DNA of 64,000 nucleotides from a virus (taxonomy: Duplodnaviria > Caudoviricetes). The DNA is taken from positions 8,789 to 72,788 of the IMG/VR virus record IMGVR_UViG_3300021256_000011; one strand, 5' to 3'. Of this stretch, positions 6,327-14,527 are shown piece by piece; within the stretch, counting starts at the first letter, position 1; the number at the start of each line of letters is the position of its first letter. The notes beneath the pieces are model-generated. The model was given only the letters and a program-made list of their open reading frames with translations, had not been told where the DNA came from and ran no database searches. The translations under genes and the position numbers were made by a program.

Positions 6327-6392
6327 CGGATGGGGGCGGGCTCGAACCGCCGACTGTGGCTTTTGCCTCTCTACCAACTGAGTTACCCATCC
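6327..6392 (-). tRNA. tRNA-like element with truncated anticodon arm (no anticodon assignable)
   Basis: GGATGGG/CCCATCC acceptor; TAACTCAGTTGGTAGAG D arm; GGCGG-TTCGAGC-CCGCC T arm; anticodon arm reduced to GGC-AAAA-GCC. Confidence 0.75.
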
Positions 6393-6396
6393 AAAA

Positions 6397-6540
6397 ATCG
6401 GTGCGTGACATCCTCACTTTGGCTCTACGATGTCAGCTTCACGGATAATCCCAAATTTTCTTCTCCGCTACTCTTATTCACTGCCTTTCCGCACCGATGC
6501 GCCGCCGTTAGTGCACTCCTTGGGAATTACCCCGTGCCCG
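6397..6540 (-). ncRNA. Candidate structured ncRNA immediately upstream of the tRNA-like element
   Basis: ATCGGTGCG/CGCACCGAT closing stem, inner TGACATC/GATGTCA stem, further hairpins; intergenic. Confidence 0.4.
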
Positions 6541-6543
6541 ATA

Positions 6544-6816
6544 TTAAATTTTAATAAGTTTTACCAAATGCCAATAATCGCTTACTTGCCCGAGCCGTCC
6601 AATCCAGATGGACCTTATTGCCTGAAACGAGCATCCGTATTCGCGCTGGCAGATATCCTCGAGCTCATTATCGAAGACGCCTCCAGCATTGTTCCAGGTA
6701 GTTTGGAACTCCGTCTGGCACATTACGCCGTCTGCGGTCTCGATTTCTCCGCGTCCAATGCCATTCTCCGGCACCAGTAGTTTCTCTGCAAATTTAGCTT
6801 TTATTTTCATAAACAA
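6544..6816 (-). CDS. Hypothetical protein
   Basis: ORF in operon. Confidence 0.65.
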   Translation of the reverse strand: MFMKIKAKFAEKLLVPENGIGRGEIETADGVMCQTEFQTTWNNAGGVFDNELEDICQREYGCSFQAIRSIWIGRLGQVSDYWHLVKLIKI

Positions 6817-7132
6817 CCAATATACATTTTGTCCTGCTCAAGATATCTTTACCATGTCCTTCTAGCATGGCGTAACTCAGCCACCGTTTAAAGGCCGCGT
6901 CCCAGGTTATCCCGTAGCGCATCTTACAAAGGAAGTCGCATGTCCTATCGCAAGCAATAAGGAAGACGCTCTCGATGGTCACTTCCGGTCCATTAAAGAA
7001 CCGCATCGTGTCTCCGGACTTAGCGTCCAAAAAAGACCGCGTCTTCTCGTAGAACCTACCGTATGGCAGCAGAATGTAGTTTAGCCACATCTTCCCCGGT
7101 TCCTCATGAGCCGGCTTGAACACCCTTCCCAT
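6794..7132 (-). CDS. Hypothetical protein
   Basis: 112-aa ORF in operon. Confidence 0.7.
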   Translation of the reverse strand: MGRVFKPAHEEPGKMWLNYILLPYGRFYEKTRSFLDAKSGDTMRFFNGPEVTIESVFLIACDRTCDFLCKMRYGITWDAAFKRWLSYAMLEGHGKDILSRTKCILVVYENKS

Positions 7133-7133
7133 A

Positions 7134-7694
7134 TCAAATCTTCCTTGTCAAGTCATACAACGCCAAGCAGTACGAGTCCATCGTTCCCTGAGACACCTTC
7201 CGGTCTTCTTCAGGCAAAAGCCGATACGCATACGCAAAATCGTGCATATAAGAGATGTAGTCCCCCCGTGTGAAATTCTTCACTGGAGCACCCGGGTCCC
7301 AATGCACCTTTGGGGTCCCCTTGAAGACCTCGAGGCCGGTATGGTTCGGATACTTCAACCACTCCTCTACACCGAGCAGATAAAACCGCATGCAGTACGG
7401 CAGGAAGCACCAGACGGAGTCAATCTTCCGGATCTTGAAAATGTAATTCTCCGCCAGCGATTTCATCCCGGCCTTCCGGGCCCACCAGTACAAAGAAAAA
7501 CGATACATCTGCCAATCAAGCTCCTCGGGCTTACCGAGAACACCAAATTGCCAGTCCTCGCTCCTGGAGTCCAAGAAATCCCTTGCGCCAATATCGTCAC
7601 CAAATTCACAGGCGTCCAGGACCCCCCGCTTGAAGCAAGTGTCATAGAAGCGCAGAATGTGCGGCGCAATAGCCCTATTAAGAGTAAATCTCAA
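7134..7694 (-). CDS. Hypothetical protein
   Basis: 186-aa ORF in operon. Confidence 0.7.
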   Translation of the reverse strand: MRFTLNRAIAPHILRFYDTCFKRGVLDACEFGDDIGARDFLDSRSEDWQFGVLGKPEELDWQMYRFSLYWWARKAGMKSLAENYIFKIRKIDSVWCFLPYCMRFYLLGVEEWLKYPNHTGLEVFKGTPKVHWDPGAPVKNFTRGDYISYMHDFAYAYRLLPEEDRKVSQGTMDSYCLALYDLTRKI

Positions 7695-7866
7695 AGCCTA
7701 ATTCCCTTAAATAGCCAAGAATGTAAAAATACATCCCGAGAGAGCACGCGGGCAACCTCTCTACCACGAGGCCGTTCTCCGTCTCCCGAACATTCGCCAT
7801 AGCTACGCCGGCGTCATCTTTCACGATGCAGCCGTTCATATCAATAATATCGTTCGCTGTCTTCAT
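7678..7866 (-). CDS. Hypothetical protein
   Basis: 62-aa ORF with coupled overlaps. Confidence 0.6.
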   Translation of the reverse strand: MKTANDIIDMNGCIVKDDAGVAMANVRETENGLVVERLPACSLGMYFYILGYLRELGFEIYS

Positions 7867-12455: not shown

Positions 12456-12458
12456 AGT

Positions 12459-14030
12459 CTAAAAAGGAAGCCCTTCATATTCGTCTTTTCCTGCGGGCAT
12501 ATCGTCTACCACAGGCTCGTTTTTTACGCTCTCCACGGGCGCCACCTCCAGGTAGTACCAGATGCCGTCGCTTCTCCGCTGAGAAGCAGCGCCCATCTTC
12601 TTGAACTGCTCCGTGACCGCCGAGCGCGAGCGAGGCGTTTCACCCCAATCCTCGCAGTATTTCTTGTAATCCTGGACCCATTCCTTGAGAGACTTCCATC
12701 CAGGGGCCCTGTTATCTTCCGGCTGGGCCGCAACATAGCCCATCGTGTCAATCCAGCGGCGCAGGCTGTTGCTATTGGCCTTCATCTCGTCAACAACCTC
12801 TTTGACGGAACTAGCAATTTCAATCTTGCCCTCGTTCTTGATGAAAGACCGGTACCCTTCCAGGACCCAGTTGAAGATGGCAGACTTCACTTCTGGGGCC
12901 TGGAGCTTCATTTCAAGCATAGGGTCCTTGTCTCGGTCATCAATATGGTTCGGTGCCAGGATAATCAGAAATCTCCTGAAATAGCCCTCGGTATCATCCG
13001 TTGTCGGAGGTATCTTGTTGGCGCAGCAAAGCATAAGGGGGATCTTGTCAACCTTTGTCGGCCTTTTCGAATAGGGGTGCCTGCCGGTAAATGCCCCGCC
13101 GGAAACAAACTGCTTAAAATCGCCACCTGAGAAGTCTTTGTTTGATACCTCATCGCAATAATTCACTATCTTTCCGTTAACATCGGCCAGGTGGTACTCC
13201 ATCTGAGCGCTCTTGAAGAGCTGCTCAGGGCTGTAACTGCTGGCCACCGCGGGCCCAAGCATGTTAACCACCGCCTTGCAGATAATACTCTTGCCGTTCT
13301 GGCCTTCGCCGACGACAAAGCATATGTATTCAATCTTGTATTCGGTCCTCTTAGCAAGGAAACAACCGCAAAACTGGTGCAGAGTCTCCCGCATATTCTC
13401 GTCCGGGACAGTCTGGGCAAGGACCTTATCCCACAGCGCAGAACGCGCATCAGCAACATAATCGAAGTCCAGGACGATATCGGTCTTATATTTCATATCG
13501 AAGGGACACAACTTCATCTGCTGCAGGTCATAGACGCCATTCTTGAAGCATACATACCGGCGGTCCGGCACAAAACGGCAGCGCTCATCCCCCTTTAAAC
13601 GATTAAGGCAATAATCCTTCACGATATTCACCGAACTGGTCTGGTACACAATGCCGACATTCTGACGCTCCAATACCTCATTGATTATCTCCCGGAAGGT
13701 CTCCTCCGTCATCCTCTCGTAATACTGCCCGTTGAAGGCGTATAACTGATCATCCTCATCCATCTTGAAGAAATCGTTCCCCCCATCTCCGGCCAGACCG
13801 CAAACATAACGGCGCATGGCAATGCAGATGCCAGCCTCCGTCTTTTTGTTCACCCTGTCATCCGAGAGGCCAAAATCCACAAAGGATTGTCCGGCAGTCG
13901 AACACAGGTAGTCTATTATTTGCGCGTACTTCACTGAAAACTTGCGGTTTTTCAATAAAAAAGCCAGAACAGACAGGGCCCTTCCGGAGAAGGTGGGTAC
14001 ACCCTGGCTGCTCTGGCCCGATTCTTCCAT
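12459..14030 (-). CDS. P4/D5-family SF3 helicase (phage/plasmid primase-helicase)
   Basis: VGEGQNGKS (Walker A), VNYCDE (Walker B), CCANKIP (motif C), D5-N-like YVCFKNGVYDL. Start set at MEESG. Confidence 0.92.
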   Translation of the reverse strand: MEESGQSSQGVPTFSGRALSVLAFLLKNRKFSVKYAQIIDYLCSTAGQSFVDFGLSDDRVNKKTEAGICIAMRRYVCGLAGDGGNDFFKMDEDDQLYAFNGQYYERMTEETFREIINEVLERQNVGIVYQTSSVNIVKDYCLNRLKGDERCRFVPDRRYVCFKNGVYDLQQMKLCPFDMKYKTDIVLDFDYVADARSALWDKVLAQTVPDENMRETLHQFCGCFLAKRTEYKIEYICFVVGEGQNGKSIICKAVVNMLGPAVASSYSPEQLFKSAQMEYHLADVNGKIVNYCDEVSNKDFSGGDFKQFVSGGAFTGRHPYSKRPTKVDKIPLMLCCANKIPPTTDDTEGYFRRFLIILAPNHIDDRDKDPMLEMKLQAPEVKSAIFNWVLEGYRSFIKNEGKIEIASSVKEVVDEMKANSNSLRRWIDTMGYVAAQPEDNRAPGWKSLKEWVQDYKKYCEDWGETPRSRSAVTEQFKKMGAASQRRSDGIWYYLEVAPVESVKNEPVVDDMPAGKDEYEGLPF

Positions 14031-14097
14031 TGCCTCGTACCCTTTGAGGCGGACTGCAAAGTTAGCGATTTCCCGCCAACCTGCAAACTTTTTTTTG

Positions 14098-14180
14098 AGG
14101 CGCCAAGGAGACTCGAACTCCCGACCCCATGGTACACACTGGATGCTCCCCATGCGCTCTACCTACTGAGCTAAGGCGCC
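14098..14180 (-). tRNA. tRNA-like element with 17-nt loop in place of the anticodon loop
   Basis: GGCGCCT/TGGCGCC acceptor; GCTC-AGTAGGTA-GAGC D arm; CATGG-(17 nt)-CCATG; GGGAG-TTCGAGT-CTCCT T arm. Confidence 0.8.
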
Positions 14181-14239
14181 ATGTGCCGGTCTATTCCCGG
14201 CAGTCAGTCATAATAGGCCCACGCATCACTGCGGTGAGT

Positions 14240-14273
14240 TGGTGGACGGACCCGGATCCCTCCGGACCCGCCC
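14240..14273 (-). ncRNA. Acceptor-minihelix-like hairpin ending in ACCA
   Basis: GGGCGGGTCCGGA-GGGA-TCCGGGTCCGTCC-ACCA: 13-bp stem, GNRA loop, ACCA tail. Confidence 0.45.
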
Positions 14274-14448
14274 TGTAATGAAAACTAATACACTTATGTA
14301 ACGCTTCGCAGCGTGGAGCCCCGGAAAAGAATCACCCTCGCCGGGGCTTGGATTTTTAGAAAAGTATCAATATTTACCCTTAGAGGGTTTCTCACCCCCG
14401 TCGATTCCTTTGGATCGGCATTTGCGGTTAAAAAATAAGGGTTTTTCG

Positions 14449-14527
14449 TCCCCGCGGAAGGGCTCGAACCTCCGCCCCCCGGCTGACCTCTCATTGAGCC
14501 GGATTCTACCAACTGAACTACACGGGG
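14449..14527 (-). tRNA. tRNA-like element with 12-nt loop in place of the anticodon loop
   Basis: CCCCGTG/CGCGGGG acceptor; GTTC-AGTTGGTA-GAAT D arm; CCGGCT-(12 nt)-AGCCGG; GGAGG-TTCGAGC-CCTTC T arm. Confidence 0.8.

Follow-up and report, generated by a model that had tools for sequence, protein, structure and literature searches.

Three tRNA-like RNA genes with non-decoding anticodon arms in the early region of a siphovirus genome

The stable RNAs called species 1 and 2 in the tRNA cluster of phage T4 are of the same kind as the stable RNAs of phage T5. The T5 record (AY692264) lists six stable misc_RNAs in its tRNA region (RNA1, rna2, RNAI, RNAIII, RNAIV, and RNA2H), and two of them, RNA1 and rna2, have an enlarged middle enclosed by a tRNA-like acceptor stem and a T arm of the GGUUC type. 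These non-decoding tRNA-like RNAs have gone without a function for decades, and annotation routinely discards their like as pseudo-tRNAs. We analyzed three elements of this kind, designated E1, E2, and E3, in a 64,000-nt stretch of phage DNA (hereafter, the window), which comprises bases 8789–72788 of the 72,788-bp IMG/VR record IMGVR_UViG_3300021256_000011. The comparative evidence given below indicates that E1, E2, and E3 are very probably maintained, non-decoding, tRNA-derived RNAs.

Elements with the shape of a tRNA also serve as signals in longer transcripts. tRNAs punctuate mitochondrial transcripts, and tRNA-like processing signals include mascRNA/MALAT1 and the tRNA-like units of murine gammaherpesvirus 68. 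In bacterial tRNA maturation, RNase P recognizes the acceptor/T helix, the elbow, and U at position −1, RNase Z acts on precursors that do not encode CCA, and the 3′ end is finished by the CCA-adding enzyme; RNase P and RNase Z require only an acceptor/T minihelix plus the elbow. A tRNA of T5 counters the PARIS defense. Van den Berg et al. (2023; PMC10264068) report phage tRNAs that evade or neutralize tRNA-targeting defenses.

All three elements were located on the minus strand where a first-pass annotation of the window had placed three tRNA-shaped RNAs (Table 1), and each keeps the stack of the acceptor and 5-bp T stems, a UUCGA T loop, a D loop with G18G19 for the elbow, and a discriminator base. 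In E1, the acceptor GGAUGGG/CCCAUCC forms 7 of 7 pairs, the D arm ACUC-AGUUGGUA-GAGA has 3 bp and an A/A mismatch at the first D-stem pair with G18G19 kept, the anticodon arm has shrunk to GGC-AAAA-GCC (3 bp and 4 nt), and the T arm GGCGG-UUCGAGC-CCGCC is followed by discriminator G73 and a CAA trailer. Its minimum-energy fold is the cloverleaf, which makes up 65% of the ensemble (z = −2.9); E1 was unmatched by the Rfam tRNA model even at E ≤ 10. The Rfam tRNA score of E2 was 47.4 bits, compared with a gathering score of 29. Its anticodon stem CAUGG/CCAUG (5 bp) closes the 17-nt loop GGAGCAUCCAGUGUGUA, its seventh acceptor pair is a U7-U66 mismatch with 6 of 7 pairs formed, and it ends in U73 and a CAA trailer. 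E3 scored 41.7 bits, also above the gathering threshold, and has the stem CCGGCU/AGCCGG (6 bp) with the 12-nt loop CAAUGAGAGGUC, or alternatively 5 bp with 14 nt, as well as a C1-G72 pair, A73, and a CGA trailer. ARAGORN did not call E1 and labeled E3 'tRNA-???' with a four-base 'anticodon'.

Inserts of 17 nt (E2) and 13–14 nt (E3) replace the 7-nt anticodon loop, and U33 is at its expected place in none of the three loops. Apart from the U-U pair of E2, all three elements have the cloverleaf core; none has the 7-nt loop with U33, the purine 37, and the anticodon common to orthologues that characterize a canonical tRNA. U occupies position −1 in 3 of 3 elements and none has an encoded CCA; the trailers, which read C-R-A, fit the C-N-A pattern of the canonical tRNAs of the clade. 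The three different non-canonical anticodon arms thus stand as the first-pass annotation gave them. Its paired 7-bp acceptors hold for E1 but fail at one pair in E2, and the D arms that it called canonical keep their core, but that of E1 has the A/A first pair. In addition, E3 lacks the nucleotide at position 26. Its statement that the window has no canonical tRNA agrees with ARAGORN and Rfam, and over the whole 72,788-bp genome Rfam together with a custom core scan recovered E1, E2, and E3 but no canonical tRNA. The pattern of acceptor plus T arm by itself occurs 1–5 times in shuffled genomes; chance cannot account for the complete core including the D-arm consensus, together with the Rfam scores and the covarying orthologues.

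Related loci were gathered through the primase, through the 97-aa gene upstream of E3, and by whole-record searches, and the comparative families are small (4–8 sequences). Other records are cited under our labels, G or L with a number. The E1 locus was found in eight genomes, which have in common the 5′ flank, the acceptor GGAUGGG/CCCRUCC (covarying in one of them), G73, and the CAA trailer. This scaffold carries five different anticodon arms (Table 1), and none of the relatives has a 7-nt loop at this locus; the exact arm of 3 bp and AAAA occurs only in this genome, and the nearest relative has 5 bp and AAA. In the E1 family (7 sequences), the acceptor and T stems are 100% paired, 6 pairs are changed on both sides, and the covariation score was reached by 0 of 500 shuffles; controls with slid alignment were 40–55% paired. 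In the E2 family (4 sequences), the acceptor is 93% and the T stem 100% paired (97% of stem cells overall), and 7 acceptor/T pairs are changed on both sides, compared with 39–58% pairing in the slid controls. Over the two families, 96–97% of the acceptor, D, and T stem cells tested are paired. The anticodon stem of E2 is itself compensated (CAUGG/CCAUG, CACGG/CCGUG, CAUCC/GGAUG, and CAUCU/GGAUG). Its loops are of two types, ..GCAUCCAG..GUA and GGUCGGCCAG..., both of which can form a mini-hairpin of 2–3 bp followed by AG; the window and L012 share the core GCAUCCAG unchanged despite differences in 4 of 7 acceptor pairs.

These results agree with the proposal in the first-pass annotation that the elements are maintained non-decoding mimics and not products of random decay: the abnormal arms recur in orthologues, the stems of the E1 and E2 families covary (no shuffle out of 500 reaches the score), and damage is limited to one arm in every lineage, the other stems being spared. 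Versions of these genes with a 7-nt loop, which the first-pass annotation had named as a refuting result, were looked for in the relatives and were not found. Scattered mutations with neither compensation nor conservation, the pattern of a tRNA pseudogene, are not what the alignments contain. E1, E2, and E3 are, however, not one coordinated set; they represent three distinct lineages in a tRNA/tRNA-like cluster that spans the clade and changes fast.

The arms are under constraint of their own. Three genomes of the subfamily with the 10-nt loop are identical at positions 8–43 and differ at 9–11 of the 38 other positions (Fisher p = 4e-4 to 2e-3), and within this subfamily the arm is more constrained than the stems. 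The 10-nt loop of the E1 locus reappears on an E3-like body, in the E3 position, in L282. We regard the arm as an exchangeable module because it is swapped between lineages, constrained within one, and recurs on the E3-like body of L282. The E3 loop UCAAUGAGAGGUCA resembles a diverged form of the module with the 10-nt loop. L282 1028–1102, found in the metagenome scan, is the nearest relative of E3, lies at the same position, and has a 12-nt loop; a pattern scan of viral contigs gave no E3 orthologue, and pattern scans for relatives of E3 and E1 returned mainly ordinary tRNA-Asn, tRNA-Gln, and tRNA-Pro.

As judged from sequence, aminoacylation identities that depend on the anticodon are impossible for E1, E2, and E3. 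Among the identity elements that do not depend on it, neither G3-U70 (Ala), nor a long variable arm (Ser, Leu), nor G-1/C73 (His) is present, so the three RNAs are expected to be uncharged.

The positions of E1 and E3 relative to neighboring genes are tight. The ATG of the DNA methyltransferase gene lies 15 nt past the E1 discriminator and has no Shine-Dalgarno sequence, and in 7 of 8 genomes with the E1 locus the next ATG follows N73 by 4–16 nt across an A/U-rich spacer. The gene behind the locus varies: it is a C5-like methyltransferase here, and elsewhere Dam, a radical-SAM-like gene, or an unnamed 73-aa reading frame. Further, an E2-type element lies 19 nt before an N6/N4 methyltransferase, and a third body type 22 nt before a C5 methyltransferase. 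A reading frame starts within 25 nt of only 3.4% of 673 ordinary phage tRNAs. On the upstream side, the first element of the cluster in the relatives, whatever its type, always opens 5–14 nt past the stop codon of the 97-aa gene. The methyltransferase was also tried as an anchor for finding E1 orthologues and failed, the gene being widespread in unrelated gut phages; in those loci, tRNA-core elements of abnormal form did not turn up, nor did any lie within 25 nt of a start codon, although the loci were not checked one by one. The link to the start codon is a property of the E1 locus and not of this methyltransferase family. An upstream reading frame running into E1 was rejected, since the open frames there are at most 60 aa.

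The three elements are most likely excised like tRNAs, because the conserved parts are those read by RNase P, RNase Z, and the CCA-adding enzyme; an intact coaxial acceptor/T helix with the elbow is placed directly at gene boundaries. Host RNase P and RNase Z would cut the elements out, and the CCA-adding enzyme would finish them. Excision of E3 would cut the polycistronic transcript 8 nt past the stop codon of the 97-aa gene. Excision of E1 would give the methyltransferase mRNA a 15-nt A/U-rich leader and would free a start region that is otherwise buried beside a stable structure. The released RNAs, probably uncharged, may also act in trans through the variable arm. The best overall explanation, which we hold in even balance, is that these are maintained non-decoding RNAs excised by RNase P and RNase Z that serve as processing or expression modules and as scaffolds for a variable arm. 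The genomic context speaks for 'punctuation' in the case of E1 and E3 and says nothing about decoys; processing or expression in cis as the main function of the elements is a tentative assignment that falls somewhat below an even chance. A trans role of the released RNA, with decoy and arm display taken jointly, is about equally likely and has to be taken seriously. A combined form, in which the tRNA body has become in this clade of rumen phages a modular platform freed from early transcripts by the tRNA-maturation enzymes of the host, is doubtful. Its release would switch on the gene directly behind it, repeatedly a swapped-in DNA methyltransferase, and its exchangeable arm, such as UAAGAGUUGAGA or GCAUCCAG, would work in trans on some target of the host or the phage. 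If true, the methyltransferase switched on by release would protect phage DNA, and one element would combine mRNA punctuation, expression of an anti-restriction gene, and a small-RNA effector.

Several observations weigh against excision for expression in cis. A close start codon follows just 1 of 40 odd tRNA-like elements of other phages, and what comes after E2 is no start codon but a structured leader of 163 nt. Immediately upstream of E1, a hairpin with a U run could act as a terminator and would then limit read-through into the element. At least three near-complete relatives seem to have no element at the E1 locus and one relative has no Rfam tRNA match at all, which makes the elements dispensable. 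Finally, since processing needs only the minihelix and elbow, pure punctuation leaves the covarying anticodon stems and conserved arms unexplained.

The last point would be accommodated if the RNAs acted in trans as decoys or sponges, that is, as uncharged, CCA-ended, tRNA-shaped RNAs that soak up a host factor reading the tRNA body or 3′ end. Candidates for the factor are acceptor-end-targeting defense toxins, anticodon nucleases, modification enzymes, and RNase P, and the decoys, being unable to decode, would leave translation undisturbed. We consider this unlikely. The L-shape is retained in full, D/T elbow and paired anticodon stem included, which is more than processing alone demands, the genome holds three non-decoders and zero decoders, the diversity of anticodon arms among relatives resembles the turnover of an arms race, and phage tRNAs are reported to counter tRNA-targeting defenses (PMC10264068). 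However, nucleases that read the anticodon loop would miss closed or enlarged loops, the phage has no known host or tRNA-targeting system, no anticodon-independent identity set is found in E1, E2, or E3, and the idea does not account for the distances to start and stop codons, which are short and conserved. Distinctly unlikely, in our estimate, is a tRNA scaffold whose body provides biogenesis and stability and whose function lies in a displayed arm, either a protein-binding site or an antisense or guide sequence. Exactly the same 16-nt arm core, GGUAAGAGUUGAGACC, occurs in L003, L016, L018, and L330, its loop recurs on the other body in L282, the E2 loop core is shared with L012 on a different acceptor, and 14 of 17 bases agree between the E2 loop (14133–14149) and the 5′ arm of the hairpin in the neighboring leader (14014–13998, about 120 nt downstream), for which 0.15 occurrences are expected in the whole window. 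Against this, no complementary target turned up in the window, either for the E3 loop (searched as its complement) or for the UAAGAGUUGAGA loop (searched in both orientations), all matches being at or below chance, the E2 loop pairs with the 3′ arm of the hairpin no better than shuffled loops do, and E1 of the window and its G010 relative keep only a tetraloop or triloop with no such arm. The corresponding loop of L012 matches the 5′ arm at 10 of 17 bases, and when the 14-mer taken from the UAAGAGUUGAGA loop was searched, most hits were due to chance and the real ones all lay in clade members.

The elements could be functionless relics, either decaying tRNA pseudogenes or recombination landmarks at which methyltransferase cassettes and tRNA genes are exchanged, and the fluidity of the cluster (0–4 elements of varying type in relatives), the different cargo genes behind one E1 scaffold, and the lack of elements in some relatives all agree with this. 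Nevertheless, the nearly complete pairing with many double compensatory changes, the limitation of damage to one arm in all lineages, and arms that are more conserved than stems inside subfamilies make it very unlikely. It is extremely unlikely that they are working tRNAs, from which mini-introns are removed or which decode unusually as frameshift suppressors or quadruplet readers. In intron mode, ARAGORN can be made to read E2 as His(GUG) and E3 as Ile(AAU), with inserts of 10 and 7 nt, respectively, and the loops of L004 (1456), L015, L016, and L273 open with Y-U-NNN-N before a 29–45-nt insert whose 3′ end can pair with the triplet. The mini-intron reading fails for E2 because the four orthologues share no single cut that yields the same 7-nt loop and anticodon; U33 and purine 37 are absent, E1 has no loop for decoding, and 45 scanned window proteins (most of the larger ones) include no RNA ligase, splicing endonuclease, or CCA enzyme. 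Inserts of 7–10 nt are much too short for self-splicing group I introns, and no protein-catalyzed tRNA splicing is known in bacteria; a literature survey of titles and abstracts gave no contrary case. An intron-containing tRNA of the archaeal bulge-helix-bulge or the bacterial group I type was accordingly rejected for E1, E2, and E3. We retain excision of maintained non-decoding RNAs by tRNA-processing enzymes as the preferred reading.

Table 1. Positions of the tRNA-like elements, their neighbors, and related elements in other records.
Feature	Record	Coordinates	Strand	Description and basis
DNA methyltransferase gene	window	5610..6311	minus	PHROG 757, E = 1.9e-36; weak Pfam C-5 methylase match
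E1, tRNA-like RNA gene, 66 nt	window	6327..6392 (6392->6327)	minus	sequence, fold, orthologous loci
E1 5′ flank	window	6393..6430	minus	hairpin, then conserved ...CGCACCGAUUUUU ending at U-1; flank conserved in four genomes; fold
Structured leader between E2 and primase gene	window	13935..14097	minus	fold; relatives
E2, tRNA-like RNA gene, 83 nt	window	14098..14180 (14180->14098)	minus	Rfam tRNA, orthologues
Non-coding spacer between E3 and E2, 268 nt	window	14181..14448	minus	G+C-rich hairpins; fold −95.8 kcal/mol
E3, tRNA-like RNA gene, 79 nt	window	14449..14527 (14527->14449)	minus	Rfam tRNA, ARAGORN, L282 relative
97-aa gene	window	14536..14829	minus	stop codon 8 nt before E3
E2 orthologue	L012	4889-4971		14–17-nt loop
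E2 orthologue	L003	5793-5872		14–17-nt loop
E2 orthologue	L281	2473-2551		14–17-nt loop
E1-locus arm	window			3 bp + AAAA
E1-locus arm	G010			5 bp + AAA
E1-locus arm	G001, L016, G006, L330			4 bp + 10 nt, GGUAAGAGUUGAGACC
E1-locus arms	G007/G009 and G004			two unrelated ~65-nt inserts
UCCCGGG-acceptor family	L004	1456-1557		
UCCCGGG-acceptor family	L273	856-973		
UCCCGGG-acceptor family	L278	1144-1286		
UCCCGGG-acceptor family	L281	2317-2419		

The region between the 97-aa gene and the primase gene is highly fluid, with 0–4 elements of changing type in relatives. E2 and E3 occupy the slot in which relatives have tRNA clusters, and in one relative the position of E3 is taken by a normal tRNA-Gln that is unrelated to it. 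Throughout the clade, the cluster mixes canonical tRNAs (Met, Lys, Leu, Ser, Asn, and Gln) with many tRNA-shaped genes whose arms are abnormal (8–17-nt loops, closed hairpins, and 30–90-nt inserts). In a uniform scan, 20 of 37 distinct tRNA-core elements of the clade were abnormal compared with 44 of 746 in other viral loci, a contrast that is indicative only, because the comparison set was gathered with tRNA-like patterns and is not random.

In the 268-nt spacer of the window, a hairpin of 13 bp (about 14273–14240) has a GGGA loop, has ACCA behind it, and is kept in several relatives, and 14240–14293 is conserved in L008/L009/L022 and L273/L274/L278; the hairpin array of the spacer may be a cassette of further small RNAs. 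The leader of the primase gene is conserved and forms a hairpin of about 16 bp with an inner CCUUC/GAAGG hairpin and then a U run, with compensatory changes in L003 and L281; it could serve as a terminator or attenuator between the primase and the tRNA-like cluster. As called mechanically, the primase reading frame (12459–14153, minus strand) opens at an ATG at 14153, inside E2; the upstream 220 nt are taken as non-coding because the primases of relatives start with MKY..IIDYL, which corresponds to the GTG at 13934 here. The 97-aa gene was unmatched in Pfam and PHROG.

Several further elements were observed in the relatives. A 'tRNA-Phe(GAA)' with G33 in place of the near-universal U occurs in L012 (4537–4607), L013 (1535–1605), and L014 (5423–5494); all its stems are held by compensatory changes, and it is a decoder-like, conserved gene with an abnormal anticodon loop. 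In L010 (206–617), a tmRNA (Rfam 59.3 bits) lies directly 3′ of tRNA-Met and tRNA-Lys, and a 116-nt tRNA-like element with a large insert comes after it. A tRNA-like family with acceptor UCCCGGG and G73, some members of which encode CCA, directly follows the 97-aa gene and has inserts of 29–90 nt. The L004 and L273 loops of this family open with a normal-looking U-U-NNN-N before the insert, whose 3′ end could pair with the triplet as in an intron; the L281 loop opens with GG, and L278 is ambiguous. Bacteria are not known to have a mechanism that removes such inserts.

Similar forms were also seen outside the clade. Unrelated large phage contigs carry tRNA-like elements of 60–66 nt with a miniature anticodon arm, for example UGC-GGCA-GCA, that resembles E1 (L198 1305–1367, L147 6921–6986, and L168 7740–7799), so the minimal-arm form arose repeatedly. 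Two unrelated viral contigs have tandem arrays of 112–132-nt tRNA-core elements with large inserts (L269 2906–5442 and L260 227–2325), and those of L269 have CUGAUAAGA/CUGACAAG-like motifs in common. The gut phage contigs L166, L188, L209, L211, and L222 carry a tRNA-like gene with A33, a 6-bp anticodon stem with one mismatch, and an apparent UUA anticodon triplet, which would read the UAA stop codon.

The 72,788-bp record has direct terminal repeats and represents a siphovirus that encodes a tape-measure protein, tail fibers, and a 3200-aa protein. The 3200-aa reading frame (46839–56441, minus strand) adjoins the genes for a 1010-aa tail fiber and a 1668-aa tape-measure protein. The early/replication block occupies the minus strand in the first 17 kb of the window and contains genes for a helicase, the DNA methyltransferase, an exonuclease, a PAPS-reductase-like protein, a D5-type primase-helicase, MazG, and HNH endonucleases; E1, E2, and E3 have the same orientation as these genes and are presumably co-transcribed with them. 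Most genes are preceded by A/U-rich leaders and lack a Shine-Dalgarno sequence; this lack suggests that the host is a rumen bacterium of the Bacteroidota type. The 24 related contigs appear to come from rumen metagenomes, a sample origin that we infer. Relatives carry bacterial-type initiator tRNAs, and one also the tmRNA, which makes the host a bacterium and not an archaeon. A near-identity search of the phage collection with 6000–15000 as the query gave zero matches.

We compared the elements with the systems described above. They are like canonical tRNA (Rfam RF00005) in the acceptor, D, and T arms, the elbow, the length of the variable loop, U8, and the discriminator, and differ from it in having no 7-nt anticodon loop, U33, or anticodon conserved among orthologues; E1 does not match the model. 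As in the punctuation systems, a tRNA-shaped element lies between functional units and cleavage would set the mRNA ends and leave a very short leader, whereas those systems are organellar or eukaryotic with demonstrated cleavage and the elements here have a bacterial host and are known from sequence alone. They share with anti-defense phage tRNAs that they are tRNA-type genes of a phage with anticodon loops departing from those of the host, but the anti-defense tRNAs are functional 7-nt-loop decoders that replace cleaved host tRNAs, and the elements here cannot decode.

The clade is an unusually clean comparative case, with one genome that has non-decoders only, a fixed locus at which the scaffold stays under five different arms, and repeated tight junctions with DNA methyltransferase genes of three families. 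It makes testable both tRNA-type mRNA punctuation in a phage mostly devoid of Shine-Dalgarno sequences and tRNA bodies that carry exchangeable RNA modules; if either idea is true, many phage 'pseudo-tRNAs' would need re-annotation. The closest likeness is to the stable RNAs of T4 and T5, which are likewise phage-encoded in or beside tRNA genes, partly tRNA-like in architecture, and non-decoding; the kind is in common and sequence similarity is absent. The T4 and T5 RNAs lie inside large sets of working tRNAs, whereas the present genome is devoid of these. At 66–83 nt, the elements described here are smaller, are altered in the anticodon arm alone, have this arm swapped among relatives on a constant scaffold, and abut the start and stop codons of protein genes. 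A literature search found no published description of this non-decoding tRNA-like family. The kind of RNA is thus already known from T4 and T5 but unexplained, and what is new is a genome with only non-decoders, a constant scaffold with a swapped arm at an orthologous locus, and a repeated tight junction with DNA-modification genes.

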